From sequence record NC_028840.1: DNA of 64,000 nucleotides; one strand, written 5' to 3'. Below are positions 2,302 to 24,206 of this stretch, one piece after another. Origin of the DNA: Escherichia phage slur09. The notes under the pieces were generated by a model. That model was not told the DNA's origin. It did not search any database and saw only the letters and a list, made by a program, of their open reading frames with translations. Numbering within the stretch: position 1 is the first letter of the stretch; each line of letters begins with the position of its first letter. Position numbers and translations under genes: made by a program.

Positions 2302-2711
2302 GTTTTAAATTTGGTAAAAATAGCGAAAAACAATTAGCTACCGTTAAGCCAGAGCTACAAAAAGTAGCTCGTAGAGCTTTAGAATTATCTCCATATGATT
2401 TCACGATCGTACAGGGTATTCGTACAGTAGCACAAAGTGCCCAGAATATTGCTAATGGTACTTCATTTTTAAAAGATCCTAGTAAAAGCAAGCATATTAC
2501 TGGGGATGCCCTTGATTTTGCTCCATACATTAATGGCAAAATTGATTGGAATGACTTAGAAGCATTTTGGGCAGTTAAAAAGGCTTTTGAACAAGCTGGT
2601 AAAGAACTAGGCATTAAACTTCGTTTTGGTGCTGATTGGAATGCTTCAGGAGATTATCACGACGAAATAAAACGTGGTACCTATGATGGCGGTCATGTCG
2701 AACTAGTTTAA
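2298..2711 (+). CDS. lys: endolysin, L-alanyl-D-glutamate peptidase (M15-like)
   Basis: 137 aa; HITGDALD ... DWN ... GGHVE zinc-binding pattern; same length as T5 endolysin. Confidence 0.85.
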   Translation: MSFKFGKNSEKQLATVKPELQKVARRALELSPYDFTIVQGIRTVAQSAQNIANGTSFLKDPSKSKHITGDALDFAPYINGKIDWNDLEAFWAVKKAFEQAGKELGIKLRFGADWNASGDYHDEIKRGTYDGGHVELV

Positions 2712-2720
2712 TTAATAACT

Positions 2721-2747
2721 GAGGCGGGAATATTCCCGCCTTTTTAG
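2721..2747 (+). terminator. rho-independent terminator after endolysin
   Basis: Perfect hairpin GGCGGGAATATTCCCGCC followed by TTTTT. Confidence 0.7.
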
Positions 2748-2788
2748 GCAAAGGGGGCTTTAATAATTTTTGAAGACAGGAGAAAGCC

Positions 2789-3205
2789 ATGTTTGCAGAA
2801 CTATTCACTATGATGCTGCTAGGTATCTGGAAAATAAGTCTAGTAGTATTCGTTTTAATGATAGTCTTTACTATCATTGCATTAACTACCCGAAATAGCT
2901 TATTAATAAAGGTTATTCACGGACTAGAGTATATAATTATGGGTTCATTCGGCGTTTGTAAATGCAATTGCCATAGAGATACGAAATATTGTTGGTTATG
3001 GATGGAACTAGAGAATCCTATATCCATAGCTTTGGCTGTTTCATTCGGCATGATTCTTATGGCCCTTACTCTAGCATTAATACCTTTGATGTTAGCTGGG
3101 GGAGTTACAGCGTATTTCACCCTTTTCTCCCCGATACTTATGTACTCAATTTACCCAATAACTATGTATCTAGTTAGGAAAAGATTTATACATGCAGTAG
3201 ATTAA
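2789..3205 (+). CDS. polytopic membrane protein, unknown function
   Basis: 138 aa with about four hydrophobic segments; RBS AGGAGAAAG upstream. Confidence 0.4.
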   Translation: MFAELFTMMLLGIWKISLVVFVLMIVFTIIALTTRNSLLIKVIHGLEYIIMGSFGVCKCNCHRDTKYCWLWMELENPISIALAVSFGMILMALTLALIPLMLAGGVTAYFTLFSPILMYSIYPITMYLVRKRFIHAVD

Positions 3206-3218
3206 GATAAAAAAGTAG

Positions 3219-3247
3219 TTGACTTTTAGCCCCAGTTATTATATAAT
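3219..3247 (+). promoter_or_regulatory. strong T5-type early promoter
   Basis: TTGACT-N17-TATAAT, A-rich upstream, ATAAATT motif downstream. Confidence 0.65.
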
Positions 3248-3280
3248 ATATACATAAATTAGTTAAGAGAGGTATATATT

Positions 3281-3712
3281 ATGTCTGATCGTTTCTATAC
3301 TCAAATGGCGGAACATTTTCGTATACCACATTACGAGCTAAACATTGCACTCCGTGATCATGACTCTCCTGAGTACAAAAAGCTCGAAAAGAAAGCGGAA
3401 AAATCTATTGATACAAAGGTAGGTGCATCTATGTCTAAGGGCAAAAAGTTAACTCGTCTTGATCTTAATAAAATTTTAACCGAACTTTTGGGTACTGATA
3501 TTGAAGGTGCTAAATTACCACTTCTTGTACTAGAGACTATGATTAAAAAGGTCAAAAATAAAGAATATAAGAAGGTAGAAGTCCCAGAAGGCAGATTGAA
3601 GGCTCCTTATCAGGAAGCATTAACCGAGTGTTTGGGTGTAAATCTTGATTTGAGCACCGCAACTGTAAAAACTATGAAAAACTTCTTAGAGGCCATTAAT
3701 AACTATGAGTAA
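3281..3712 (+). CDS. hypothetical protein
   Basis: 143 aa ORF downstream of promoter at 3219-3247 with RBS AAGAGAGG. Confidence 0.5.
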   Translation: MSDRFYTQMAEHFRIPHYELNIALRDHDSPEYKKLEKKAEKSIDTKVGASMSKGKKLTRLDLNKILTELLGTDIEGAKLPLLVLETMIKKVKNKEYKKVEVPEGRLKAPYQEALTECLGVNLDLSTATVKTMKNFLEAINNYE

Positions 3713-3995
3713 ATTAGTATATCTATTGAAAGGTTCCACTTGCAATCCTTGCAAAATGTTTGAGCCAGTATTTGATAAAGTAGTCAGTGACTATAATTTG
3801 GAAATCCATAAAGAGACTGATAATACAGAATTAATGCAGAAATTTGGTGTGCGCCAAGTTCCTGTAGTAGTTCTGGCGGATCGCTTACCTAATGGTCGAG
3901 TAGAAGCTAATCATATTCTGATTGGACGTCAGCTTCGTAAAGAAACTATGCACGAAGCTATTAAAAATTTCCTGGATGATAATCCAGAGGACTAA
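3705..3995 (+). CDS. thioredoxin/glutaredoxin-like protein
   Basis: 96 aa; C-x-x-C motif CNPC in thioredoxin-like N-terminal context; start overlaps upstream stop. Confidence 0.5.
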   Translation: MSKLVYLLKGSTCNPCKMFEPVFDKVVSDYNLEIHKETDNTELMQKFGVRQVPVVVLADRLPNGRVEANHILIGRQLRKETMHEAIKNFLDDNPED

Positions 3996-4000
3996 TAAAC

Positions 4001-4034
4001 AAAGCCTGATCTTAGCTGATCAGGCTTTTATTTT
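4001..4034 (+). terminator. rho-independent terminator
   Basis: Hairpin AGCCTGATC/GATCAGGCT followed by TTTATTTT. Confidence 0.65.
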
Positions 4035-4036
4035 AC

Positions 4037-4065
4037 TTGCTTTTTGCTAAAAATTTTGGTATAAT
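4037..4065 (+). promoter_or_regulatory. strong T5-type early promoter
   Basis: TTGCTT-N17-TATAAT. Confidence 0.6.
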
Positions 4066-4092
4066 ATTTATATAGATTGATAGGAGGATTAA

Positions 4093-4338
4093 ATGTTAGC
4101 AGAGCAAGCAAAACGTTTAGCTAGAGTTAATAGAGCTGCTCTTCTCAAGAGCCGAAAGAAAACGTATAGATGGGTTAAGCGGAGGATAGTATCTTCTGTC
4201 GAGATTGGAGGTTCTTTTGTACAGCTTAATCGTGACGAAATTAGTTATGAAGCTATAAAAGCCCTCAATAAAGAGGGTTATACTCTCAAACTATCAAATA
4301 ATTATGGTACAACTATTTTAAATGTTATTTGGGAATAA
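4093..4338 (+). CDS. hypothetical protein
   Basis: 81 aa basic ORF with RBS TAGGAGGA upstream. Confidence 0.45.
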   Translation: MLAEQAKRLARVNRAALLKSRKKTYRWVKRRIVSSVEIGGSFVQLNRDEISYEAIKALNKEGYTLKLSNNYGTTILNVIWE

Positions 4339-4340
4339 TT

Positions 4341-5204
4341 ATGAAAAAAGAATTTAATGTGCATAAAACACTAGTAGTACCTGATGATGTTAACTTATTC
4401 TTTGTTGGGGATATTCATGGATGCAACGATTTACTAGAAGATGCACTACAATTAGCTGGCTATAACGGCAAGAAAGACTGCGTTGTATGCGTAGGGGATT
4501 TAATTGATCGAGGCACGCAGAACCTACAAGTTTTAGCCAAATTCCTGTATAATCCACGCTTTATCAGTGTCCGTGGTAATCATGACCAATTTATGATTGT
4601 GGGAGATTGGGCTAACTGGATGTATAACGGTGGTATGTGGGCCATGAATGAACTAGATGCAGATACCATTAAAAATATTGCTGAAGACATGGCTGAAAAA
4701 ATGCCAGTATTTCTGACTGTATTGCATCGTGGTAAAAAGTATGGTGTTGTTCATGGTGGTGTACCTTTTACGTACAAAGAATGCGGTAACGAAGTAGAAA
4801 CCCCAGTATGGGATAGCCTTATTGCACAAGTAGAAACAGCTAAGGAAGACCCACATGACCATCCTGGATACCATGTTGAGCCATACTTATGGGATCGAGA
4901 TGTAATCCAAGAAATAGGTTTTCACTTAGCTAAAAATGGTGAAGAACACTCACATTTCCAGCGTTATGCAGGGTTTAAAGAGAAATACATGGTAGAAGTA
5001 CCTCCGGTTAATGGAGTAGACTTTGTATTTCATGGGCATACCGGAGTACCTTACCCGATTTTATACCAGAACCGTGTTTACCTAGATACTGGCGGTGTTT
5101 TCAACGGGCAGTTGACGGTTGCGCAGGTTAACGATGAAACTGGCAAAATCACCACATTTACCACAGACAAAAATGATAGCTGCGGTGTACAGAGGATCCT
5201 TTAA
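4341..5204 (+). CDS. Ser/Thr protein phosphatase (calcineurin-like metallophosphoesterase)
   Basis: GDIHGC, GDLIDRG, GNHD, HGG, GHTG phosphoesterase motifs; start taken at ATG 4341 (MKKEF) rather than track start 4329. Confidence 0.75.
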   Translation: MKKEFNVHKTLVVPDDVNLFFVGDIHGCNDLLEDALQLAGYNGKKDCVVCVGDLIDRGTQNLQVLAKFLYNPRFISVRGNHDQFMIVGDWANWMYNGGMWAMNELDADTIKNIAEDMAEKMPVFLTVLHRGKKYGVVHGGVPFTYKECGNEVETPVWDSLIAQVETAKEDPHDHPGYHVEPYLWDRDVIQEIGFHLAKNGEEHSHFQRYAGFKEKYMVEVPPVNGVDFVFHGHTGVPYPILYQNRVYLDTGGVFNGQLTVAQVNDETGKITTFTTDKNDSCGVQRIL

Positions 5205-5491
5205 TGAATGATAGAATGAAAGAAGTACAAGAAGAATTACGAGCAATGCGTATTGATGCCCTTCGTTGGAGGGCATTAGTTAATGCTTTCGTCAAAGGAG
5301 ATACCGGAGTAATATATTCTGGAATAGCAGTCAATTTTTGTTTTAATTCTCCTGCTGAAATAGAGATAGAAACAAGGCTTACTACCTACCTTAATGAGGT
5401 AGACCTTAAGGGAGGAGAGACTCCCGAGGAGTTTAAAACTAGAGTATTAACTACCTGGGTTGATAATTTAATACAAAAAAGGAGTAAGTGA
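5204..5491 (+). CDS. hypothetical protein
   Basis: 95 aa ORF, start overlaps upstream stop. Confidence 0.45.
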   Translation: MNDRMKEVQEELRAMRIDALRWRALVNAFVKGDTGVIYSGIAVNFCFNSPAEIEIETRLTTYLNEVDLKGGETPEEFKTRVLTTWVDNLIQKRSK

Positions 5492-6081
5492 TGAAGGTTA
5501 AATTCTGGTCGGACTTGCACTTAGACCACCCTGGAGCACTACGTTTCCGTCCGTGGTTTAAGAACATGAAAGAGCACGATGAGTATATTCTAGATACTTT
5601 GTCCAAGCATATTGGTAAACGAACAAAACTTATTTTGCTAGGAGATATTGCAGTAGGTCGTGAAGGCCTGGCCAAATTAAAGTCGGTTATCCACAATGTC
5701 CCTAATCAACTCATTATGGGTAATCATGATGCGGAGCGTCAAGGGCTGAGTATTAGGGACTTAGCGGAAGTTTATGACGATATTCAAGCTCTAGGCAAAC
5801 AGACTGGAGGTGGCAAAAAGTTTTGGCTATCTCACTGCCCTTTGCATCCCAATGAACTTCGTGGCAAACTAAATATTCACGGACATGTACATACTACTTC
5901 CCTACGTGATCCACGTTATATTAATGTCTCATTTGAAATGAGTAAAACTCCAATTCCGCTAGAGGATATTGTGTCTGGTAAGTTTACTAGTTATGATAGA
6001 GTAGTTAATTGTACTACCGGCGAAGTATTACAAATAGGGGAAGATGTAGCTGCTGTATTACGTGGCGATATAAATGTCTAA
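5491..6081 (+). CDS. metallophosphoesterase
   Basis: DLHLD, GD, GNHD, GHVH motifs; RBS AAAAGGAG 6 nt upstream of ATG 5491. Confidence 0.65.
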   Translation: MKVKFWSDLHLDHPGALRFRPWFKNMKEHDEYILDTLSKHIGKRTKLILLGDIAVGREGLAKLKSVIHNVPNQLIMGNHDAERQGLSIRDLAEVYDDIQALGKQTGGGKKFWLSHCPLHPNELRGKLNIHGHVHTTSLRDPRYINVSFEMSKTPIPLEDIVSGKFTSYDRVVNCTTGEVLQIGEDVAAVLRGDINV

Positions 6082-6188
6082 GTATATAGCCGAGGCTATT
6101 ATTAAACGAATCATACAAGCGATAGCAATACTTATAATCATTTGTATTACTATTGGCACAGGATTAGGCATTTTAACTAAAAGTTTTA

Positions 6189-6218
6189 TTTGCTAAAATG
6201 CTTAAGTTTCTGTATAAT
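6189..6218 (+). promoter_or_regulatory. strong T5-type early promoter
   Basis: TTGCTA-N18-TATAAT followed by ATAAATT and RBS. Confidence 0.65.
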
Positions 6219-6248
6219 TACTTTATAAATTGATGAGAAGGAATCAAA

Positions 6249-6680
6249 ATGAACAAAGTTGATAAAGCTCTAGTTTTCGCAGCAGCAGATAAGTTTGAAC
6301 AAGTTAAGGCAACTTTCCGAACCTTGTTCCAGTCTTACGTTCAGGATAAGTCTAATCCTATTTCTGAACGCTTGATGGTTTGGGAGTGTCATGCTTGCAA
6401 TGCCCTGCTAATTGCTGATTACCGTAGTGATATAGATAAAGATCTTTGTGAAATCCTTATCCCCAAGGAAGCAGAACGTTATCAGTTAATCTCTTTCCAA
6501 GATTTGGCGGAGCATATCATTCCTGATGATCTTTGGGATAAATACTATGGGGATCCTGAAGATGAAGGAATGACTCCAGAAGCCTGTATTGAGCTGATCT
6601 GCAAAGATCATCCTGAAATTGCGGAGAAATTTGAAAAAGTTTTTGCTTCTGAGTTCTCCGGCGTTGTTAACGATTGGTAA
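6249..6680 (+). CDS. hypothetical acidic protein
   Basis: 143 aa ORF behind promoter 6189-6218. Confidence 0.5.
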   Translation: MNKVDKALVFAAADKFEQVKATFRTLFQSYVQDKSNPISERLMVWECHACNALLIADYRSDIDKDLCEILIPKEAERYQLISFQDLAEHIIPDDLWDKYYGDPEDEGMTPEACIELICKDHPEIAEKFEKVFASEFSGVVNDW

Positions 6681-6697
6681 GTAATTAAAAAATTCAG

Positions 6698-6726
6698 TTG
6701 CTTTAAGCCTTAAAATTCTGTATAAT
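6698..6726 (+). promoter_or_regulatory. strong T5-type early promoter
   Basis: TTGCTT-N17-TATAAT followed by ATAAATT; near-identical architecture to 6189-6218. Confidence 0.65.
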
Positions 6727-6758
6727 AAGTTCATAAATTAATGAGAGAGGAAATTCTA

Positions 6759-7037
6759 ATGGAAAACATGACTAAAGATTTCGACGCCTCTAACCTTACT
6801 AAGACTGAAATGGCCAATGTATTAGCAATTCTCCTCGACATGCAAGGATTTGAGGGGCAACTGATGAAAATGTCTATTCCGGCGATGAAGAAGATGTATG
6901 ATTCTCTTAACAAGAACGCTATGGCCTTTAACTTAGCAAAACAAGAGGCACGCTTTGCTAAGGAGCATCAAGCAGTGGCAGAACGCCGAGCAGCTAGCTT
7001 TGAGCGTGAAGTCAAGCAATTAAAGAAAAAATGCTAA
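6759..7037 (+). CDS. hypothetical protein
   Basis: ORF behind promoter 6698-6726; start chosen at ATG 6759 behind GAGAGAGG (track start 6741). Confidence 0.45.
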   Translation: MENMTKDFDASNLTKTEMANVLAILLDMQGFEGQLMKMSIPAMKKMYDSLNKNAMAFNLAKQEARFAKEHQAVAERRAASFEREVKQLKKKC

Positions 7038-7567
7038 CACAAGAAAGATTAAAAGAGTTATTTGAATACCGCCCGGAAACGGGCGAGTTTATAAGGAAAG
7101 TCAGTAGAGGACGAGGTAAAGCAGGTAGTATTGCTGGTAGTCCTGATAAGGATGGTTATATATTTATTGGGATAAATAGAAAAAGATATGCAGCCCATAG
7201 ATTAGCCTTTTTGTACATGGAGGGGTATATTCCAAATCTAGTACACCACTTAAATAACATAAGAAAAGATAATAGATGGTGTAATTTAAAAGATTGTACG
7301 TCCCAAGAGAATAATCGTAGCAAAATCGCTCAATCTAATTAGGGGTACTTAGGAGTTACCTGGAAAAAAGATCGACAACAATGGAGAGTCCAGGCCAGAA
7401 GCGCCGAAAGCATTACAGTACACGGAGGCTACTTTAGGTACCTAGATTTAGAGTTGGCAGTTCAAAGAGCTAATGAACTACGTTTAGAACTACATGGGCC
7501 TAATGCTGTTATAGAAACTTTTGATCATACAAAACCCTTACCTACTTTAGAGGACTTAAATAAATGA
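7031..7567 (+). pseudogene. HNH/AP2 homing endonuclease interrupted by an in-frame TAG at 7340-7342
   Basis: HNH part (AHRLAFLY...HHLNNIRKDNRWCNL) ends at TAG; same frame continues GYLGVTWKKDRQQWRV...ELHGPNAVIETFDHT to TGA 7565-7567, colinear with the intact paralog at 63556-64000 where Ser occupies the TAG position. Confidence 0.55.
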
Positions 7568-7845
7568 TTACAGAAATTCTCATTGGATTGCTAGTGCTTA
7601 TGACACTAGTAGCGATTGGCGGAGTTATTGGGATTGTGAATGCACGAAAAAGCATGGAAAATATGCTTATTACTAATGATGGACTACACCACCGTTTGCT
7701 AGAGCAAGAGCAGGACATTGAATTAGCACAAAGACGCTCGGATATTCTTAAGGAAAAATTAAATAATATAGAAGCAATAGTTGGGAATAATAAATTACCT
7801 GCTAAAGTAATGCGTACACAGATAATCACGGAGATTAAAAAATGA
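7564..7845 (+). CDS. small membrane protein
   Basis: 93 aa, N-terminal TM helix then coiled-coil-like charged region. Confidence 0.45.
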   Translation: MITEILIGLLVLMTLVAIGGVIGIVNARKSMENMLITNDGLHHRLLEQEQDIELAQRRSDILKEKLNNIEAIVGNNKLPAKVMRTQIITEIKK

Positions 7846-8087
7846 TGATGTTTATTCTAGCGTTTTATTTGATTGTAGTTGGTGTACTGGTTACTAAGTA
7901 CCATACATGGGCACCAAAGAATATAGTTAAGGTAGCACTGTTTGTTATTCCAGTCCCGCTTATTATACTTTCTATGTTACTGGTGATGTTAATCGGTAAA
8001 ATAACAAAAACCGATATTAAACGTATTGCTGATGAATTGCAACAGTCTTGTGATATGGTAGAGGATATTCTTAAAGATGAAGCTTAA
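7842..8087 (+). CDS. small membrane protein
   Basis: 81 aa, two hydrophobic segments; ATGA overlap with upstream gene. Confidence 0.45.
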   Translation: MMMFILAFYLIVVGVLVTKYHTWAPKNIVKVALFVIPVPLIILSMLLVMLIGKITKTDIKRIADELQQSCDMVEDILKDEA

Positions 8088-8403
8088 TTTTAATGAATTA
8101 AATACCTTACATAAGATACTACAGTTTGTGAATAATAATATTAGCATTCCAGATGATACGCTAGAAGTTCTCATGTTAATCGAGAAAAAGGTAGGAATTG
8201 AAATTGAGGACTCCTGGAAACCGCTTTCTGTATTAACACCCCTTAATATGAAAGTGATAGTTAAAAATATCGATACTGGTGAAGAATGTAAGATGATTCG
8301 TAAAGAACTAGCTGATAGCTATTCACCAAAGTCTGTAGTAATGTACCATGATGATACCGCTAAGACTCTACAGACAGCTAATTACGTATGGCGTCTCCCA
8401 TGA
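8077..8403 (+). CDS. hypothetical protein
   Basis: 108 aa ORF. Confidence 0.45.
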   Translation: MKLNFNELNTLHKILQFVNNNISIPDDTLEVLMLIEKKVGIEIEDSWKPLSVLTPLNMKVIVKNIDTGEECKMIRKELADSYSPKSVVMYHDDTAKTLQTANYVWRLP

Positions 8404-8502
8404 TTGATTTAGTACCAATTACTGCGGGGCTAATAGCACTATTAGTGCTTGCAGTTTTTATTATTGTGGAGTAGGCCAAAGTAATAAGGAGACTTAAAAA
8501 CA

Positions 8503-8703
8503 ATGATAAAACGTCTTGTTTATCAGGCACCAAAGATTGTAACTGAGTATTTTGTATTACTGCCTCAGATTGTATTTCTAACAGCATTATTTAATACACT
8601 TTTTCGACATCTAGGAATAACGGAAAATATCTTCTACACTTCTGGGTTACTTCCTTTTATGTACGAAGGCATCATCGTGGCAATCAACGGAGTTCGTAAA
8701 TGA
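8503..8703 (+). CDS. hypothetical protein
   Basis: 66 aa ORF with RBS AAGGAGA upstream. Confidence 0.35.
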   Translation: MIKRLVYQAPKIVTEYFVLLPQIVFLTALFNTLFRHLGITENIFYTSGLLPFMYEGIIVAINGVRK

Positions 8704-9161
8704 CAGCACTACAACAACTACAGAATTACTGGTTTGATAACCAATTTAACGATCTTTTCATCCAGTTGTTTGTCGAAACGAACGGACGCTTCAACTACCG
8801 ATTCTTTAACAAGTTTCACGAAACAAAATTCTCGCATACAGAAATTAATGCAGCGATCCAAGACCTAACTGGTTCTAAAGTAGTTCAATATCGTGAAGTA
8901 GACTTTACACCAGATTGTTTCGGGTTTGAATTGTTTAAGAAAGCATATAAATTTGGTAAGTTTGAGGATGCTCGTCAATGGGTTCATGATTTCTGGTACA
9001 ACACTGATATTGTTCCTAGTCGTGTACTGATTCTTAACTGGATTGCCAAACAACATCCGCCTAAAGCTCAATCGTCCTTCTTACCAACTGATACAGGAAA
9101 CCTCTACCATGACAGAAAAGAAAAATCCATTATTGGAGCAGATGAAGGAGTGGGAGAGTAA
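8700..9161 (+). CDS. hypothetical protein
   Basis: 153 aa ORF, start overlaps upstream stop. Confidence 0.5.
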   Translation: MTALQQLQNYWFDNQFNDLFIQLFVETNGRFNYRFFNKFHETKFSHTEINAAIQDLTGSKVVQYREVDFTPDCFGFELFKKAYKFGKFEDARQWVHDFWYNTDIVPSRVLILNWIAKQHPPKAQSSFLPTDTGNLYHDRKEKSIIGADEGVGE

Positions 9162-9480
9162 TATTGAAACTGGTCTAATAGACGGTGAAGATATTGTCAA
9201 CTCCATGCTAGAAGTAACAGTAGATAACATTAATCCTATTTTGGCTGGAGAAACCTCAGATCTTATAGGACTCTCTAGCACATTTGATTCTTTGGCTAAA
9301 TTAGCTTTAGACGATGAAGAGATAACCAAAGAAGATCTCGCTACAGCTATGAATATGGCTATTAATGCTTACATCGGTAAACGTACTGATGAACTTGGTA
9401 AACAGATCAATAAGCGTGATGCTACGCTAGGTCTTATGGAAACGGCCACTATGTTAAGAAGTGGTAAACAACTTCATTAA
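9142..9480 (+). CDS. hypothetical acidic protein (start uncertain)
   Basis: Track ORF 9043-9480; ATG 9142 has GGAG 5 nt upstream; alternative ATG at 9109. Confidence 0.4.
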   Translation: MKEWESNIETGLIDGEDIVNSMLEVTVDNINPILAGETSDLIGLSSTFDSLAKLALDDEEITKEDLATAMNMAINAYIGKRTDELGKQINKRDATLGLMETATMLRSGKQLH

Positions 9481-9486
9481 TTTTAG

Positions 9487-9517
9487 GAGGCCAGGACTTA
9501 GTTGTTCTGGCCTTTTG
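9487..9517 (+). terminator. rho-independent terminator
   Basis: Hairpin GGCCAG/CTGGCC followed by TTTT. Confidence 0.5.
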
Positions 9518-9540
9518 AGTACATATAAAAGGAGACTATA

Positions 9541-9774
9541 GTGGAAATTGTATTAATTATTCTTGCAATAGCACTATTATTTGCAATCAGCATATCTATT
9601 AAAAAGACTCGTGATCTTAATAGGACTATAGATGATAACAGAAAACTACGTGGTGAAAAGGCTAGGCTTAACCTACAGCATGAAGCTCTGAAGTTATTTG
9701 TAGTTCAGGGCAATAGAAACCATACTCCTGAAGATTTTATTAAACAGCTTAAAAAGCACTTAGGGCTCAAATAA
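9541..9774 (+). CDS. small membrane protein (GTG start)
   Basis: 77 aa, N-terminal TM helix; RBS AAAAGGAG upstream. Confidence 0.4.
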   Translation: MEIVLIILAIALLFAISISIKKTRDLNRTIDDNRKLRGEKARLNLQHEALKLFVVQGNRNHTPEDFIKQLKKHLGLK

Positions 9775-9959
9775 TGGAAACTCTTTTTCTTTTAATGCTC
9801 GTAGGTTCTCTGTTACTAATACTAGCACTTCTACTAATCTGCAACATTCTTAACAACAAGAATCTAGAGTTAAAGTGCGAAAACCAAATCCTTAATCGTG
9901 AACTTAAACAATATAATCTAGCAGCACATAAACTGTTAGACAAACTGGAGAATAAATAA
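9774..9959 (+). CDS. small membrane protein
   Basis: 61 aa, N-terminal TM helix plus coiled coil. Confidence 0.4.
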   Translation: METLFLLMLVGSLLLILALLLICNILNNKNLELKCENQILNRELKQYNLAAHKLLDKLENK

Positions 9960-10570
9960 TGTTTACACAACAACCTATTCAAGTAGTACCAGACCATGAA
10001 CTGAACACATGGGATTATAGCTTTAAAGATTTAACTGCTACTATACAATTCAAATCTATGAAGCTAACATTTGCACACACTGACCTTAGAGCATGTAAAG
10101 ATCTTGAAGGTAAGCTCGAAGATGCTCGTAAGATTTTTGGCACGGCTCGCATCCCGGCTGATAACCTGATTAATGCACTGATCGATGCAGGATACAAACT
10201 AGTGAAGGCTGAGGTTAACCGTCCTAGTACTCCTGTAACTATTAGAGATCCGTGGCAGTCAGGGACAATCTCAATGCTGAGTAACTCCGATAAAAGGTTA
10301 ATGTCGGATATGCACAATGTTCCTTGTGGGGGTGTGGTAAGTAGTACGAAGTCATATAAGTTTGGGGAAGATTACGGCCCTTCTGTACAGTTGAAACATA
10401 CTCAAGAAGCTTTTGAATCTGATATGCGAAGCGTAGCACCTGCGGATGCTGAAGGTTTTAAAAGTCCCCTCTATGTTACTCACTTTAATAATCTTAGACC
10501 TGGGAGTATAAGTGATACTATCCTTGAAGCGTTGGGAGCTGCTATTAATGAAGATAAGAGGGGTAATTAA
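9959..10570 (+). CDS. hypothetical protein
   Basis: 203 aa ORF, RBS GGAGAA. Confidence 0.5.
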   Translation: MFTQQPIQVVPDHELNTWDYSFKDLTATIQFKSMKLTFAHTDLRACKDLEGKLEDARKIFGTARIPADNLINALIDAGYKLVKAEVNRPSTPVTIRDPWQSGTISMLSNSDKRLMSDMHNVPCGGVVSSTKSYKFGEDYGPSVQLKHTQEAFESDMRSVAPADAEGFKSPLYVTHFNNLRPGSISDTILEALGAAINEDKRGN

Positions 10571-11295
10571 TGAGTATAAAAAAGAATTTAGCAGAGATTA
10601 TTAAATTAGCTAGAGCTTGTAATGGGAAATGTGTTTCTCAGCTTAATGAGTTAGAGGCACATGCAGTGGCATTTTGTGCAGAGTTCTATCCTGCATACAT
10701 TAATGCTAGTGGACAACCTAAATATAATAAAGATGCAGAAGAAGTTACGTTAGCTCCTTCTTATATTAGTATACGTCGTCTGATTCAAACTGTTGATCCG
10801 ACTATTAAAGGATTTTCAGCAGATTCATTCCATGTCTTTGCTGATAAAGAACTCCCACATTTTAAAGAAGGAAGTGCAAAGACAGCCCTAGAATGTTATC
10901 CTAAGATTTTGATGATTCCACCTAAGCAATGTAAATACGATCATCTTCCTAGACTTACAAAGAAAGTAGAACCACCTTATTCTTCTCTATCTGAATTAAA
11001 GCTAGGAATTGTATCGACACTTGCGCAGGTTCATCTAAGTATAGTTGACGACTCAACAACATCTAATCCTATTCTAGATGCTGCACACTTTGAAATTTTA
11101 CGTGATCCTGAACAAGCTAGAAAAGTTGCAAAGTCTGTTAAGTTTGATATAGCAACAATTCTTGACACTAAACAAGAAACTAGACCTAGAGGAAGTGTAG
11201 ATTATTCTGCGCTAAACTCCGAGTCATCTTACTTAGCAACATTCCTTTTCATGGCGTCAAAAGGAGTTATTCTAAAGGTTAATAAAGATGGATGA
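10570..11295 (+). CDS. hypothetical protein
   Basis: 241 aa ORF. Confidence 0.5.
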   Translation: MSIKKNLAEIIKLARACNGKCVSQLNELEAHAVAFCAEFYPAYINASGQPKYNKDAEEVTLAPSYISIRRLIQTVDPTIKGFSADSFHVFADKELPHFKEGSAKTALECYPKILMIPPKQCKYDHLPRLTKKVEPPYSSLSELKLGIVSTLAQVHLSIVDDSTTSNPILDAAHFEILRDPEQARKVAKSVKFDIATILDTKQETRPRGSVDYSALNSESSYLATFLFMASKGVILKVNKDG

Positions 11296-13149: not shown

Positions 13150-13335
13150 GAATGATAATAAGAATCATTCTCATTTAAAAAGCGGAATGAGAATGATAAT
13201 AATTCGCATTTAGAAAGTGAAATGAGAATTATTCAGGAAGTGAAACGATTCTCATTTAAAAAGTGAAATGATTATTAGTTAGATAGTGAAATGCGAATGA
13301 TACTGATTTGCATTCAAGAATGGAAGTGAGAAACA
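13150..13335 (+). repeat. short degenerate tandem repeats of type AGTGAAATGAGAAT
   Basis: About six units (gcggaatgagaatga, agtgaaatgagaatt, agtgaaacgattctc, agtgaaatgattatt, agtgaaatgcgaatg, ggaagtgagaaacac) read by eye. Confidence 0.6.
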
Positions 13336-13347
13336 CTGTTATTTAAG

Positions 13348-13430
13348 TTATCCACAGACTTATTAACAGCACGATTTGACTTGACAGAATCCTAGCCATT
13401 TTGAGGCGTTATTAACAGACTTATCCACAG
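13348..13430 (+). promoter_or_regulatory. two exact DnaA-box 9-mers TTATCCACA
   Basis: 13348-13356 and 13422-13430. Confidence 0.5.
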
Positions 13431-13438
13431 CTTATCCT

Positions 13439-13458
13439 ACTGTATAAATATACAGTAT
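13439..13458. promoter_or_regulatory. LexA-box-like palindrome TACTGTATAAATATACAGTA
   Basis: CTGT-N8-ACAG with AT-only spacer and TA flanks; one spacer difference from my recalled SOS-box consensus TACTGTATATATATACAGTA. Confidence 0.45.
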
Positions 13459-13822
13459 TCCTACGCAGTGAATAATTCTAATATAGCGTTAAAACGTCCT
13501 AGATCGCATTCTAACGCGTTTAATTTTGGTGGGGATACTAAAACACGGGCAAAATTGGAGGAGGCTTGAAAATTAGTTAGCACGCTAACGATCACACAAG
13601 GCGACACGTAACACCCTAACCATTAGCAGGCTAACCATCGCGGGCGCGGTCAAATGAGAATGATTCTCATTTGAGAATTGGGGCACTTCCTGATAGTTGC
13701 GCCCCGTGATTATTATAGTAGTGGGCAACCGTTACGCTTTGCCCACTCCCGCCACTCATCTTGATGCCTAGACTTGCGACGGCGTACTAAAAACCGCTTG
13801 TACCAGTGATTAAACCATCGTT

Positions 13823-14026
13823 TCATAAATCCTCCTCCGGTAGTCGATGCGTGATCTTCTCCTCTTCCCCGTAGGAGTCTACCAAATGCTGATAATAACC
13901 ATCGTGATCATAAATCACTTTATCATACTCGCCACGCTCGACCGCTTGTCGGTTTTCCGGCGTATCAGGCACATAAAAAACGTCTACCGTTGTGGTAGTT
14001 TTGGTTACAACAATTTTATTGCTCAT
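13823..14026 (-). CDS. small acidic protein, unknown function
   Basis: 67 aa ORF, acidic C-terminus (GEEEKITHRLPEEDL). Confidence 0.45.
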   Translation of the reverse strand: MSNKIVVTKTTTTVDVFYVPDTPENRQAVERGEYDKVIYDHDGYYQHLVDSYGEEEKITHRLPEEDL

Positions 14027-14041
14027 ACTAACGCTCCGTTA

Positions 14042-14149
14042 TTAAAAATTACCGTATATTCCCGGCCAAATTTTACTAGTAACATAAGTTACTATTCCTG
14101 CCGTAATTATGCTGTAAACTACTAACAAGATAAACATTAAACCAGACAT
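14042..14149 (-). CDS. 35-aa hydrophobic membrane peptide
   Basis: Hand-translated MSGLMFILLVVYSIITAGIVTYVTSKIWPGIYGNF; RBS GGAGG upstream; below track length cutoff. Confidence 0.4.
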   Translation of the reverse strand: MSGLMFILLVVYSIITAGIVTYVTSKIWPGIYGNF

Positions 14150-14174
14150 AATACCTCCTCGTAAATATATAATC

Positions 14175-14519
14175 TCATTGCGCCACCTTTCGAAACGCTG
14201 TTTCAATACTATCCGCAGTGGATTGAATATACGCGCCTTTCATTATCAGGCGCTCAGTGCATACTTTGCGGAAAATATTAATAAAATCATCTTCATTTTC
14301 TGCAATTAATGCTTCACCCATAACTTGAACGTCACAAGATGCAAAAGTCAAAAATTGAAATGCTAGTTCACGGGCAACGACCGCATTAATTTTATAATGC
14401 GCCTTGCCCTCATAAATATTAATAACGCCCTTATAAGCTGGGGAAAGCTGATTTAAATAGTTTGCTAATAATGCCGGACGGCAATTAGCAACAAAGCGAT
14501 TGCCTTCATAAATAACCAT
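14175..14519 (-). CDS. hypothetical protein
   Basis: 114 aa from ATG 14519, translationally coupled to upstream gene (TAAaATG); track extends to 14558. Confidence 0.45.
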   Translation of the reverse strand: MVIYEGNRFVANCRPALLANYLNQLSPAYKGVINIYEGKAHYKINAVVARELAFQFLTFASCDVQVMGEALIAENEDDFINIFRKVCTERLIMKGAYIQSTADSIETAFRKVAQ

Positions 14520-14520
14520 T

Positions 14521-14733
14521 TTATAGCACCCCACGAAACGCAGCGTAAAAGGTGGCAAAGTGTTTAACCGTTTCAGCGATCACGTTGCCGCGCTTATCAA
14601 ATTTTTTCTCAGTAACACGAAAGGCATTTTTATTACGTGCTACATATTCGATTCTACAATCTTCCCGCTCGAACGTGTTAACATCCACCAGCTTAAAGCC
14701 TTTCGAACGTGCAAGAGAAACGTTGCGGATCAT
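14521..14733 (-). CDS. hypothetical basic protein
   Basis: 70 aa ORF; start immediately after stop of membrane peptide. Confidence 0.45.
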   Translation of the reverse strand: MIRNVSLARSKGFKLVDVNTFEREDCRIEYVARNKNAFRVTEKKFDKRGNVIAETVKHFATFYAAFRGVL

Positions 14734-14735
14734 TT

Positions 14736-14885
14736 TTATTCCCCTTTACTAGTCATGCAGCCCAGCAGATAAGAAAATACAGCGATACCCGCGCCGATAA
14801 TAACCGCGTGAACGCCGAAAGCTATTGCAAATAATGATAAAATAGCGCCCAAGATACCTGCTAGAATAGCTCGAAAAATAACCAT
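14736..14885 (-). CDS. 49-aa hydrophobic membrane peptide
   Basis: Hand-translated MVIFRAILAGILGAILSLFAIAFGVHAVIIGAGIAVFSYLLGCMTSKGE; RBS AGGAGG upstream. Confidence 0.45.
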   Translation of the reverse strand: MVIFRAILAGILGAILSLFAIAFGVHAVIIGAGIAVFSYLLGCMTSKGE

Positions 14886-14934
14886 TTGTGATAGCCTCCT
14901 AGTTATCGGGGGATATAATATCCCCCGCTATTAA

Positions 14935-15165
14935 TTACATTAAAACAATTTTTGCCGCTTGTTTTTTGGTACAGTGTTCCGCTTTCAGGGTATCCAGTAA
15001 AAAGCCAGCCGTTTGCTGATCGATTTTATCAGCGTTATATAGTTCCTGAATGGTATTATAAGTTTTAGCAATGCCGAACTCCTGCACCATTTCATATATG
15101 ACAGCGCGATTAGATACCCAACCTTGAGCGGTAAACAGATGACTAGCAGAAGAATAAGCAACCAT
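14935..15165 (-). CDS. hypothetical protein
   Basis: 76 aa from ATG 15165 behind GGAGGC; track ORF extends to 15243. Confidence 0.4.
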   Translation of the reverse strand: MVAYSSASHLFTAQGWVSNRAVIYEMVQEFGIAKTYNTIQELYNADKIDQQTAGFLLDTLKAEHCTKKQAAKIVLM

Positions 15166-15228
15166 TTTAAGCCTCCAAATTTTTGGGAAAATTTTCAATC
15201 CACCGTTTTGGTGTAAAGGCATTATAAC

Positions 15229-15256
15229 AAAAAAGGCCGCCATAAAAGGCGACCTT
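15229..15256 (-). terminator. rho-independent terminator (minus strand)
   Basis: Hairpin GGTCGCC/GGCGGCC followed by T-run on minus strand. Confidence 0.5.
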
Positions 15257-15270
15257 TACAAAACTTTACA

Positions 15271-15765
15271 TTAAACTACCTGTAAGGATTCAATATTGAA
15301 ACATCGTTTCAATTCGTCATGCAAAACAGCGTATTCATCCCATCGGGTACTATCAGGAATATAAACAAGCTGCTTTAACCGGTTTGCATATATTACCGCT
15401 TTGTTATCAATTATCTCGACGCCACCATGTTTAATAATTAATTTTATGACGGAATTAATAGGATCGCCGCCGTTTACATATGTGCCGGATTTACTTAACT
15501 GATAATGATAAAGGCTTGCATATACGTTTTCATTTTCATACCATTCGCCCGATTCCTCGTCCTCATAACCGTCACTACCAAAACGAGAAGCGTTATCAAT
15601 AGCCATTTCATGAGCGAAAGCGTCCAGATCACAACCAGCGGGAACAAAGTGTTCCTCCGTCCAACCTTCTCCGCAATAACCAGTATGACAATCGACCAAA
15701 ATGATCATATCATGTTTTGCCGTGCTCACTTCTCCCAGTGAGAAGCCATATTTTTCTTCTGGCAT
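15271..15765 (-). CDS. strongly acidic protein, unknown function (anti-restriction candidate, inferred)
   Basis: 164 aa from ATG 15765 behind AGGAGG; about 29 Asp/Glu versus 12 Lys/Arg by hand count. Confidence 0.5.
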   Translation of the reverse strand: MPEEKYGFSLGEVSTAKHDMIILVDCHTGYCGEGWTEEHFVPAGCDLDAFAHEMAIDNASRFGSDGYEDEESGEWYENENVYASLYHYQLSKSGTYVNGGDPINSVIKLIIKHGGVEIIDNKAVIYANRLKQLVYIPDSTRWDEYAVLHDELKRCFNIESLQVV

Positions 15766-15829
15766 AATTAGCCTCCTATTAATTAACAAGGGAATAGTAA
15801 AGCGGGGTAATAATCCCCGCTTAGTATTA

Positions 15830-16822
15830 TTACTCGCTTTCGGTGTTAGTTGTAAAAGTAGAAATATCGATACCTTTTACCATTTCATCAATCATCTCAG
15901 CGATGTTAAAACTTTGTACCATTTCCAGCATTGCCGCTTCCATAGCCGCTCCTGCTACCGCTTTCGCTTTCTGGTTATTTGGGGCGTACTGGTCAACCGC
16001 TACACTCAGCAGGTTAGCGATCACTACTCGACCGATAGGCGTATCAATATAACCTTTAATCATAAATGGCGCTTTTTTAGCCACTACTTTCGTGATTTGA
16101 GTTAGTGCAATTTTACCCGCTTCCAGTTTTGCAGCGTTTACAACAGCGGATTTATTAGCGGCAACGATGTTAGCAATCTTGGTCATGGTGTTTTTTCCTT
16201 TGTTTTCAGTAGTTTGAGTGTTAACGCTTTGAGTGTTAGAATTTACAGTATGTTTTTCTATACTGTCAATAGGCTGATTTTCATCTTTCCAGAACGTAAA
16301 GCCGGCTTCTTCTATCAGATCATTATAAACATACGGGCATAATTCCGACGGTAGCAAAAAATTACCGTTATCATCAAAAGCCATTACAGCCGCAAAACGA
16401 TACCCGTGATAATCTGACTTATTCCACCCAAGTGATAAATAACGCCAAAATGAATCGAGAAAATTTTCTACGTCATAAAGATCTTTATCATAAGCCTCAT
16501 AGTTTTCTATTGTGAAAACTTCTAAGCCCGCCCCAGCATCATAGGCTTTTACTGTATTGCCTTTTACTATGATAAAATCAGCATCCGGCCCCCGACTAGT
16601 AAGCAAGTGGGACTCCTGATTATATAAAACAAGCGTTGCCCCTTGTTTATATAACGGTAGAAAACTATTCATATTATAAGCATCATAATCATCAAAAAAA
16701 TTATGATGAATAGTTTCAATATTGAAAACAAAATGTTTAATGCTGGTTGTCCTGCTACCGTCCAGCAGGTTGCGCAATGCACCTTTTAAAACGGTAGCGT
16801 TATCAGGTTTATAAAGCCTCAT
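15830..16822 (-). CDS. hypothetical protein (largest gene of cassette)
   Basis: 330 aa; RBS GAGGGGGG; N-terminal Tyr/Asp-rich half and Ala/Val/Lys-rich C-terminal half; no recognisable motif. Confidence 0.5.
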   Translation of the reverse strand: MRLYKPDNATVLKGALRNLLDGSRTTSIKHFVFNIETIHHNFFDDYDAYNMNSFLPLYKQGATLVLYNQESHLLTSRGPDADFIIVKGNTVKAYDAGAGLEVFTIENYEAYDKDLYDVENFLDSFWRYLSLGWNKSDYHGYRFAAVMAFDDNGNFLLPSELCPYVYNDLIEEAGFTFWKDENQPIDSIEKHTVNSNTQSVNTQTTENKGKNTMTKIANIVAANKSAVVNAAKLEAGKIALTQITKVVAKKAPFMIKGYIDTPIGRVVIANLLSVAVDQYAPNNQKAKAVAGAAMEAAMLEMVQSFNIAEMIDEMVKGIDISTFTTNTESE

Positions 16823-17086
16823 TTGTTGGCCCCCCTCGTTAATCGGTGAGTGAATGATATAGATATTTGTTCACTAGGGGCAAGAAAAAAGAAAATGTTT
16901 TTTATTCCTTGCCTAGCGCCTATTTTTATGATAGCCGCGCAGCGGTGTAATAAAGAGCAAAACACGGCGAAGCCACCAGGCCGTCGCATTGAGGCTTTGC
17001 TTTAGTATTACCTAACAGCGTTTAGCTCGTTAGAATGCGATTTAGGCCGCTTAAAATTGATTGCAGTCGTTAACACTACCTTTTTA

Positions 17087-17106
17087 CCCTGTATATTTAT
17101 ACAGTA
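17087..17106. promoter_or_regulatory. LexA-box-like palindrome CCCTGTATATTTATACAGTA, upstream of minus-strand cassette
   Basis: Inverted copy of 13439-13458; about 265 bp upstream of the start of 15830-16822. Confidence 0.45.
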
Positions 17107-17114
17107 GGATAACC

Positions 17115-17196
17115 TGTGGATAAGTCTGTGCAAAAGTTCTTATATCGCCGCCTATCATGTCAAGCCAAAAAGTGCTGTGGATAACTTTGTGGATAA
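17115..17196 (-). promoter_or_regulatory. three exact DnaA-box 9-mers (TGTGGATAA on plus strand)
   Basis: 17115-17123, 17176-17184, 17188-17196; further near-matches at 17448-17456 and 17473-17480. Confidence 0.5.
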
Positions 17197-17937
17197 CTTA
17201 AATGATAGTGTTTCTCACTTAGGCTAATGATTTCTTATAGTTATTATTTCTCATTAATTTATATGTATATAATATATTATGTAATAGTTAGTTGGCTAAT
17301 GAGATTTTCCGTGATTAATAGTCTGCTATTAATTCAGGCCGTTACAATCCACCAGCATGACCATCATCCTAGCAATTATTAGTCTGCTATTCTTCCAATA
17401 CACACTAGCAAATAAAAGTCAATTAATTTATTTTATAAAATAAGTAGTTATCCACTGGAAAATAAAAGTCAAGTGGATAACTAGGAAAATTTCATTTTTG
17501 CTTTGGGGATAAGTTATCAACAAGGCTAGAATGCGCCTAAAACGCTCCAGAACGCGATAAAGTTTTAGGCCATCCCATCATAAGGGGATAGGCCGTTTAT
17601 CGCTACCACGAGCTTTTTAGATTTTGTCAAGTAGGGCAAAGCAAATATAAATGAAAAAATTACTTGCCTATCTGCTTTGTTTTGTGGTATTCGCGCGCCC
17701 GTTTCTTTTAATTTTAATGCGCCGTGCCCAGGTCGCCGCACGGTGTCCGGTGGCGTTTGTCTTTACGTTTCTTTACAAAAATAAGGTTGCGCCATTTTCG
17801 GGAATCCCCTATTATTTATCACGTAGGGCGGCAATGACGAACTACACGGCGGGAAGTTTACCGCCACGCTCTTTAAAAATTGGGTATATCTTAAAGCCTA
17901 TCGGCGGTAAACTTATTTATTATAAGGAATCGACGAT

Positions 17938-23811: not shown

Positions 23812-23915
23812 TTACGTTTCTCCGATAGTAAGGTTTCAATTCTAGCTAAGTGATTATCTAAAATACACTGCCCAATAATCACAATCCCCAGTAGTGCAAT
23901 AATTACCCATTCCAT
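23808..23915 (-). CDS. 35-aa membrane peptide
   Basis: Hand-translated MEWVIIALLGIVIIGQCILDNHLARIETLLSEKRK; stop overlaps next start; weak RBS. Confidence 0.3.
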   Translation of the reverse strand: MEWVIIALLGIVIIGQCILDNHLARIETLLSEKRK

Positions 23916-24206
23916 TAGATCCACCCCGCCATAGCTGCTAACCAAAAACCTACGAAAATAAAGAATAGGATAGTTCCGAACCCAAAACTATTTATCCAAC
24001 TCTCATACACTTCTCCACGTCTACTCTTTCTTTTGTTTGACATATCTTTCATGCTCCTATATGTGTGGTATTTAAAATATTCTAGCAATTGCAGTGATTA
24101 GTATAATTATTCCCCCTATACCTTCAATAGTGTATTGTGTGGCATCCTGAACTAATTCTGCACTAGGTGCATCTTAAGTAGTGGTGGTTACTAAGGTGGT
24201 TTTTAC

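Follow-up and report, generated by a model that had tools for sequence, protein, structure and literature searches.

Background

Small peptides of the bacterial inner membrane include the type I toxins Hok, TisB and Ldr, the regulators AcrZ, MgrB and SgrT, and the exclusion proteins Imm and Sp of phage T4 and gp15 of phage HK97. Holins and pinholins, small proteins with two transmembrane (TM) helices, are able to lyse cells. The present analysis concerns a 64,000 nt stretch of DNA from Escherichia phage slur09 (NC_028840.1), hereafter the window, in which open reading frames (ORFs) for micro-proteins of 35, 37 and 49 amino acids (aa) lie within an operon that corresponds to genes 011-017 of phage T5.

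In the T5 record (NC_005859) these genes, T5.011-T5.017, lie in the right-hand portion of the left terminal repeat, described as a region that 'comprises first-step-transfer DNA', and are followed by the injection stop signal. Inverted repeat elements of the form IRC-spacer-IRD and IRD'-spacer-IRC' were described by Davison in 25 T5-like phages, and have been proposed to be part of this stop signal (bioRxiv 10.1101/866236).

The effects of the T5 genes on the host have been surveyed by cloning. In a set of 13 T5 genes tested in this way by Mahata et al., which took in 011-017, toxicity was seen for 008, 011 and 015 (PMC8201957); Annor et al. cloned all 17 pre-early genes, of which 011, 013 and 015 were toxic (bioRxiv 10.64898/2026.04.02.716235). 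The toxicity of 011 is accompanied by uneven nucleoids; ectopic expression of 013, for which two TM domains are predicted, is toxic and causes a fraction of the cells to lyse (both bioRxiv 10.64898/2026.04.02.716235). T5.015 was shown to bind Ung and to introduce nicks at the abasic sites that this enzyme creates (Mahata et al. 2021, PMC8201957), and 012 was non-toxic in the T5 gene tests (PMC8201957; bioRxiv 10.64898/2026.04.02.716235). A T5 mutant termed DLDR, which lacks hegG-017 together with dispensable left-hand genes, is viable and forms smaller plaques, and genes 003, 009, 016 and hegG are found in fewer than 15% of Demerecviridae genomes (bioRxiv 10.64898/2026.04.02.716235). When CRISPRi-ART was applied to T5, A1 and A2 were the only first-step-transfer genes highlighted for fitness. 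In the related Tequintavirus Bas33, blocked after first-step transfer, transcription and detectable proteins are restricted to the pre-early region, and the RNA-seq table for this phage records expression of the orthologous genes bas33_0170-0175.

Results

A T5-like pre-early operon of mosaic gene content

Matches to positions 13400-17200 of the window were found by megablast in 524 phage records, all of them T5-like (Tequintavirus and Epseptimavirus) and typically placed at 5.6-9.5 kb of the left terminal repeat. When mapped to T5 with blastn, the window is collinear and in reverse orientation from dmp to the injection-stop region (Table 1). The order and strand of the core genes (011, 012, 013, 014, 015 and 017) are as in T5 and their PHROG matches are full-length; the lowest of the protein identities listed in Table 1, that of 013, includes a 10-residue loop indel relative to T5. 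By synteny and similarity, then, this is a T5-like phage's rightward pre-early operon, located in first-step-transfer DNA (the terminal repeat) and equivalent to T5 011-017. Its pre-early timing is suggested by this position and by the Bas33 data.

Like its T5 counterpart (NC_005859 6495-9157), the operon is situated between a divergent promoter with an IRC-IRD repeat on one side and the injection-stop repeats on the other, and it has the same terminators. It differs from the T5 operon in four respects: an extra gene, encoding a 164-aa protein, is present between 011 and the terminator; hegG, found upstream at 5411-5929 in T5, is absent (compare window 17219-17418); a 35-aa membrane peptide stands in place of T5 016; and 013 is a 49-aa form with a loop shorter by 10 residues. 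The gene content of the cassette is mosaic, with slots defined by the presence or absence of genes.

Eight ORFs of this cassette had been listed in an earlier model-generated annotation of the window (the original prediction), which drew on the sequence and a list of ORFs; all eight are present on the minus strand with the positions and lengths it reported. Its description of the cassette as a coherent candidate for an undescribed function fares less well. The genes are those of T5 011-017, which have been annotated, tested for toxicity one by one and deleted in DLDR, and a single coherent function is not supported because those members with known effects act on different targets: 015 is an abasic-site (AP) nickase, 011 affects the nucleoid and 013 the membrane. 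The suggestion that the small peptides are made immediately after DNA entry is better founded, in that the micro-ORFs lie, by synteny, within first-step-transfer DNA, so that their products would be expected at this stage, and the region orthologous to the operon is transcribed in Bas33. The deletion of the cassette that was suggested as a check has essentially been performed in T5 on a laboratory host, with a viable, smaller-plaque phage as the outcome.

A predicted 35-aa membrane peptide between 015 and 017

The ORF for the 35-aa peptide begins 25 nt past the stop codon of 015 and ends 15 nt ahead of the start of 017, with the Shine-Dalgarno (SD) sequence GAGGAGG located 4 nt before its ATG. 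Its product has a single hydrophobic stretch (approximately residues 3-23) and a maximal 19-residue Kyte-Doolittle mean of 2.33. Such an arrangement rarely arises by chance: of 20,000 shuffles of the 148 nt spacer between 015 and 017, only 0.08% yielded an ATG-initiated ORF of at least 35 aa with both an SD sequence and a TM-like segment. Searches with tblastn recovered the peptide from 11 phage records among more than 500, and it is present at none of the 36 IMG/VR loci that carry 015. A large protein collection places it in a 17-member cluster whose sequences come from several dozen contigs, and slur09 and ECOP18 carry annotated copies; it matches no family in Pfam, PHROG or NCBIfam.

In all nine genomes compared, which represent seven distinct DNA versions, the ORF is intact and the SD sequence is present. 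Synonymous changes account for eight of the 15 variable sites; the other seven, which fall in five codons, lead only to replacements among I, V and T or between N and D. The C-terminal half of the peptide, IVTYVTSKIWPGIYG, is invariant across these genomes, in which the ORF is found in two different upstream contexts. Together, these observations argue that the ORF is a genuine gene for a predicted single-pass inner-membrane micro-protein, which is annotated and uncharacterised.

As a small, hydrophobic peptide with a single predicted TM helix, the 35-aa product resembles a type I toxin. This candidate was rejected: a search of Rfam brought up neither a known RNA family nor an antisense antitoxin here, the peptide matched none of the toxin families in Pfam or NCBIfam, and the gene occupies a sense-strand position within an operon. 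More generally, the membrane peptides of these phages are similar to the known small toxins, regulators and exclusion proteins of the inner membrane in being 35-53 aa in length, with one or two TM helices and a short polar tail, and gp013 additionally resembles the toxins of this class in being toxic on over-expression. Unlike the members of this class, to none of which they show sequence similarity in Pfam, PHROG or NCBIfam, the phage peptides are encoded in an operon expressed for only a few minutes.

Unrelated membrane micro-proteins recur in the same slots

The slot occupied by the 35-aa gene (window 14027-14174) is hypervariable among relatives. A comparison of the region 3' of 015 in 36 loci and the window found that it may be empty, with 015 coupled to 017 through an ATGA overlap; hold a 52-aa two-TM peptide (43 phage records); hold a 53-aa two-TM peptide (40 records), which is bas33_0171 and has an RNA level on a par with those of its neighbours; hold a 45-aa peptide whose TM helix is C-terminal; hold T5.016, or stumps of 22-32 aa that retain the hydrophobic N-terminus of 016; hold the 35-aa peptide; or hold soluble ORFs of 66-87 aa. 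In FGS009, FGS029 and NG_A1, both the 52-aa and the 35-aa peptide are present. No sequence similarity was found among the membrane peptides of the slot, gp013 and 016. This recurrence of unrelated TM micro-proteins in one slot is the most interesting pattern at the locus, and no description of it was found in the literature consulted.

A second slot lies between 014 and 015, where many relatives have a hydrophobic ORF of 40-45 aa; it is empty in the window. The Bas33 occupant of this slot, the 41-aa ORF bas33_0173, has a mean RNA-seq count of approximately 1.6, compared with approximately 430-600 for its neighbours, a difference that could come from the way reads over overlapping features are counted, or could mean that this annotated ORF is treated differently.

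The 49-aa peptide is the orthologue of gp013

The 49-aa peptide aligns end to end with phrog_5607 (residues 1-49 on profile positions 1-49, E = 4.2e-32). Its ATG is preceded, at a distance of 9 nt, by AGGAGG, and lies 49 nt past the stop codon of 012, with a hairpin between the two genes. The family is found in 362 phage records by tblastn and is routinely annotated, the exact sequence being present in slur09, AKFV33 and others. Two hydrophobic segments are evident, with a maximal 19-residue Kyte-Doolittle mean of 2.54 and means above 1.6 over residues 1-46 except for a dip at G24-H26, a profile that predicts two TM segments; both helices are rich in small-xxx-small motifs. Consistent with this, 013 is annotated in NC_005859 as having 'two transmembrane domains'. 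The peptide is, by these comparisons, the orthologue of T5 gp013, a predicted two-TM hairpin that was already known. Relative to the 59-aa T5 protein, the loop between its helices is cut to about four residues, and the toxicity tests, with their conflicting results, were made with the 59-aa T5 form.

The small size, two TM helices and lysis on expression of gp013 are reminiscent of a holin or pinholin, from which it differs in being encoded in a pre-early operon and not together with an endolysin in a late lysis cassette. Its assignment as a holin was rejected on the basis of this pre-early location, and of the viability of a T5 mutant that lacks 013 and nevertheless lyses its host.

The original prediction had identified the 49-aa and 35-aa ORFs as membrane peptides missing from the ORF list, each with a GGAGG-type ribosome binding site and stop-start coupling. 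Both are strongly hydrophobic and have strong SD sequences, and the combination of these sites with annotation as coding sequences (CDSs), the spread of the 49-aa family and the shuffling result for the 35-aa ORF bears out their identification as real genes. Stop-start coupling is seen elsewhere in the operon, with gaps of 2 nt between 013 and 014 and 1 nt between 014 and 015 and an ATGA overlap of the 017 stop with the next start, and does not extend to the starts of the two micro-ORFs themselves, given the gaps on either side of the 35-aa gene and ahead of the 49-aa gene. Translation is likely to be coupled for 013-014-015 and for 017 and the 37-aa ORF. The two peptides were indeed absent from the ORF list, as a consequence of its length cut-off alone: the 35-, 37- and 49-aa sequences are all exact annotated CDSs in slur09 (SLUR09_00028, SLUR09_00026 and SLUR09_00031, respectively). 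Conservation in relatives, proposed as a check, is extensive for the 49-aa peptide and confined to few records for the 35-aa peptide. The proposal that such peptides might act on the envelope is backed, for the 49-aa family, by the toxicity and partial lysis that follow ectopic expression of T5 gp013.

A basic 37-aa peptide ends the operon

Overlooked in the original prediction was a third micro-ORF, MKRWFNHWYKRFLVRRRKSRHQDEWREWAKRNGCPLL, of predicted pI 11.6, the start of which overlaps the 017 stop as ATGA and is preceded by the SD sequence GGAGGAGG. It is followed by the hairpin at the end of the operon, and is thus the last gene before the injection-stop repeats. The ORF is present in 61 phage records, including T5 itself (9154-9264), where it is unannotated in NC_005859; no PHROG or Pfam family was found for it. 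Orthologues of 33 aa, with 59-60% identity, are present in phage Eos and the Epseptimavirus TrudiGerster, and comparison with these reveals conservation at both termini, in the pattern MK[RQ]WF...EWRE.AKR..CPLL. The variable sites show a bias towards third codon positions, which make up 11 of the 21. In one relative the ORF is coupled straight to 015, and many relatives, which have a 64-aa form of 017, are without it.

The larger proteins

The 330-aa product of 011 matches Pfam DUF7566 (PF24450) over positions 5-336 of the 336-position profile (E = 6e-113; 378 bits against a cut-off of 27), and phrog_4263. An AlphaFold2 (AF2) model divides it into an alpha/beta N-domain (residues 1 to approximately 185), a low-complexity linker and a helical C-domain (approximately 213-325). 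Compared with distant orthologues, identity falls to about 30% in the N-domain and is 88-97% in the C-domain, in which 23-32 synonymous codon differences are found against 4-15 non-synonymous ones; on these counts, the C-domain is under strong purifying selection. An exhaustive search with the protein returned 694 cluster representatives, most of which match residues of approximately 200-325 only. In these, the C-domain sits at the extreme C-terminus of proteins 110-544 aa long, joined to N-regions that fall into at least 53 unrelated clusters, the largest of which is the HIRAN domain.

Since 18 of 100 members sharing the C-domain carry HIRAN (seven of ten in another check), the N-domain of 011 was itself tested as a divergent HIRAN domain; this was rejected, with an hhalign probability of 0.2% and no match to HIRAN in Pfam. 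The AF2 model of the N-domain is confident and has no solved structural analogue, for which reason a weak match suggesting an Alt-like ADP-ribosyltransferase is left unsupported by fold. Many Epseptimavirus homologues of 011 are named 'DNA N-6-adenine methyltransferase' in UniRef. As Pfam finds no methyltransferase domain in them, this name is treated as a propagated mis-annotation.

The 164-aa protein (pI 4.57; phrog_6741) is absent from T5 and present in roughly one third of the relatives sampled. Its fold, predicted with confidence, is without a solved counterpart, and the motifs TGxCG, GGDP and RLKQLVY are invariant; in some homologues the acidic loop contains a zinc-ribbon-like insertion of the form CPEC...C..C. 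Its gene, like that of the 76-aa protein, is preceded by GGAGG.

The 114-aa protein is the orthologue of T5.015, which is placed at 8300-8644 and is 114 aa long in GenBank AY543070, and by locus numbering would be the Ung-dependent AP nickase. RefSeq NC_005859, phrog_4227 and many phage records instead attach the abasic-site/Ung endonuclease label to the 70-aa T5.014, whereas the papers name T5.015; the label on 014 is probably a propagated off-by-one error. No solved structures were found for either 014 or 015.

Inverted repeats, promoters and terminators

The cassette is flanked on both sides by the arms of a 132 nt inverted repeat, which are 80% complementary. Perfect DnaA boxes (TTATCCACA) are concentrated here, with five of the six in the window falling within the repeat arms (0.71 expected by chance). 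The region upstream of 011 appears to correspond to the promoter annotated in T5 at 6411-6489, the position of which was mapped through blastn.

Transcription is likely to be organised as two units, one comprising 011 with the 164-aa gene and the other running from 012 through the 37-aa ORF, since a strong terminator is followed directly by an extended -10 element and the whole stretch (15221-15257) is unchanged in T5, MM-1 and Bas33. The -10 element, TGTTATAAT, may thus be an internal promoter for 012 onward. Two GC-rich palindromes, one past 011 and the other past 012, resemble each other (GCGGGG, an AT loop and CCCCGC) and have no clear T-run on the coding strand; these could be RNA-processing or stabilising hairpins.

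Outside the operon, the window DNA runs on beyond the equivalent of T5 base 1 (approximately 22871), so the assembly in the source record must be either permuted or collapsed at the repeat. About 1 kb past the end of the repeat, at 23915-24043 on the minus strand, is a 42-aa ORF with an SD sequence and a C-terminal hydrophobic segment (MSNKRKSRRGEVYESWINSFGFGTILFFIFVGFWLAAMAGWI).

Table 1. Positions of genes, putative regulatory elements and blocks of T5 similarity in the window
Feature	Position in window	Strand	Remarks
011 orthologue, 330 aa	15830-16822	-	77% to T5.011
Accessory acidic protein, 164 aa	15271-15765	-	
012 orthologue, 76 aa	14935-15165	-	phrog_5145, E = 3e-49; 83% to T5.012
gp013 orthologue, 49 aa (micro-ORF 1)	14736-14885	-	phrog_5607; 68% to T5.013
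014 orthologue, 70 aa, basic	14521-14733	-	pI 10.1; phrog_4227; 99% to T5.014
015 orthologue, 114 aa	14175-14519	-	phrog_4379; 94% to T5.015 over 114 aa
Predicted single-pass membrane peptide, 35 aa (micro-ORF 2)	14042-14149	-	occupies slot where T5 has 016
017 orthologue, 67 aa, acidic	13823-14026	-	phrog_6973, E = 3e-42; 91% to T5.017
Basic, Trp-rich peptide, 37 aa (micro-ORF 3)	13713-13826	-	last operon gene
Upstream repeat arm (Davison IRC-spacer-IRD)	17089-17220	.	three perfect DnaA boxes (TTATCCACA) at 17115, 17176 and 17188
Downstream repeat arm (IRD'-spacer-IRC'; start of injection-stop region)	13324-13455	.	two perfect DnaA boxes
Putative 011 promoter region	16828-16906	-	TTGCCC-18-TATCAT, A/T-rich tract upstream; consensus scan match 16883-16854
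GC-rich palindromic hairpin	15800-15822	.	GCGGGG-loop-CCCCGC, just past 011 stop; found in terminator-like scan
Second GC-rich palindromic hairpin	14907-14927	.	between 012 and 013, just past 012 stop
Rho-independent terminator closing 011(+164) unit	15232-15257	-	10 bp stem and T-run; counterpart of T5 terminator 7534-7559
Extended -10 element, TGTTATAAT	15221-15229	-	directly after terminator 15232-15257
Operon-ending hairpin	13680-13706	-	counterpart of T5 terminator 9275-9296, mapped via blastn and T5 annotation
Block similar to T5 1-1376	22871-21482		reverse orientation
Block similar to T5 1647-5419	21232-17418		reverse orientation
Block similar to T5 6098-7509	17219-15826		reverse orientation
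Block similar to T5 7515-8659	15273-14160		reverse orientation
Block similar to T5 8936-9279	14044-13702		reverse orientation
Block similar to T5 9321-10608	13545-12308		reverse orientation

Discussion

The reading we favour, and consider reasonably probable, is that the locus is a T5-like pre-early operon in which a mosaic array of independent accessory genes for host takeover is carried on the first DNA to enter the cell, with the 35-aa peptide in the same functional class as gp013. Transferred from T5 by orthology, the actions of its better-known members would be the nicking of host DNA by 015 at abasic sites generated by Ung, disturbance of the nucleoid by 011 and damage to the membrane by 013. 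The 35-aa peptide, encoded in a slot that is probably prone to recombination, most likely has the same kind of role as gp013 and its slot counterparts in relatives. On this view it would enter the inner membrane in the minutes-long period of pre-early expression, there either altering energetics or permeability or binding to a protein of the membrane, and the resulting advantage would be host-dependent and non-essential.

Several points weigh against this account. The toxicity of gp013 was found by one group (bioRxiv 10.64898/2026.04.02.716235) but not by the other (PMC8201957). The hegG-017 deletion mutant also lacks left-hand genes and adds only smaller plaques to the phenotype, which leaves the cassette without a demonstrated role in the laboratory host. 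The translation and membrane location of the 35-, 37- and 49-aa peptides, and likewise the internal promoter ahead of 012, are deduced from sequence, and the selection test on the 35-aa ORF draws on seven closely related sequences. Finally, the rarity of the 35-aa peptide would also fit a dispensable passenger.

Taken further, this last point would make the 35-aa ORF a non-functional hydrophobic frame, left where recombination scarred the 015-017 interval and maintained by linkage. Its restriction to 11 records, its absence from the IMG/VR loci and the lack of a PHROG family would all be expected of such a relic, and the slot does contain deletion and fusion junctions, one of which, in the window, joins the first codons of a 31-aa ORF to the SD sequence of the 35-aa ORF; stumps of 016 persist there in many relatives. 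With identities of at least 91% among all known copies of the 35-aa peptide, a test for selection has little power. A scar does not readily explain why an optimally spaced SD sequence, in three sequence variants, is found in every copy, or why the ORF fills the spacer exactly, is free of frameshifts and stop codons in seven distinct versions and survives in two flanking arrangements; nor are the predominance of synonymous sites, the conservative nature of the other changes within the TM helix and the low frequency of equivalent shuffled ORFs in its favour. We regard this explanation as improbable.

The turnover in the slot can also be viewed in terms of conflict with the host, as in the original prediction, or with other phages, the membrane peptides (49-, 35- and 45/52/53-aa) being counter-defence or exclusion factors directed against membrane-anchored effectors or the entry of superinfecting DNA, with the slot diversifying alongside host targets. 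Unrelated TM peptides that alternate or stack in one slot, as in FGS009 and NG_A1, are what would be expected of accessory genes in an arms race; a laboratory host supports the phage without these genes, and it is known that Tequintaviruses depend on first-step-transfer functions to withstand host immunity. Yet no similarity to known anti-defence or exclusion proteins was found in Pfam, PHROG or NCBIfam, and the anti-restriction of Tequintaviruses concerns cytoplasmic nucleases and is a trait that T5 has without the 35-aa peptide; we consider this role unlikely. Very unlikely, in our estimation, is a contribution of the membrane peptides to T5 physiology, whether in the export of nucleosides and bases or, together with the 37-aa peptide, in controlling the pause and resumption of DNA entry through its channel. 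T5 does excrete the breakdown products of host DNA early in infection; the operon ends right at the injection-stop repeats, and the cassette lies between inverted repeats with DnaA boxes that are implicated in the stop; and conservation of the 37-aa peptide extends from Tequintavirus to Epseptimavirus and phage Eos. Against such a role, second-step transfer needs A1 and A2 only and DNA degradation A1 alone, a T5 mutant that keeps just A1, A2, hdi and 009 can complete its infection, and many relatives lack the 37-aa ORF or the 35-aa peptide.

An array of independent accessory genes, the reading preferred here, leaves room for a more specific proposal about the slots, which we offer as speculation and think rather unlikely in its full form. 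The 015-017 and 014-015 slots would be diversity hot-spots in which recombination swaps or stacks unrelated TM micro-proteins of 35-53 aa as host-specific determinants, each neutralising a membrane-anchored defence or exclusion factor or tuning membrane energetics, and the 37-aa peptide may take part in two-step DNA transfer.

As the cassette and its 49-aa peptide, gp013, were already annotated and partly characterised, they add little that is new to the biology of these phages. The comparative evidence indicates that the very small ORFs of the operon are real, including those of 35 and 37 aa that have no PHROG or Pfam family, and that T5-like phages have repeatedly put unrelated membrane micro-proteins in the same slots. 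In 011, a fast-evolving N-domain is placed on a conserved C-terminal module that is elsewhere fused to HIRAN DNA-binding domains, which provides a lead to the function of this toxic protein. Since the resistance of Tequintavirus to restriction and nuclease defences stems from first-step-transfer functions, a catalogue of this DNA that includes its micro-proteins is needed.

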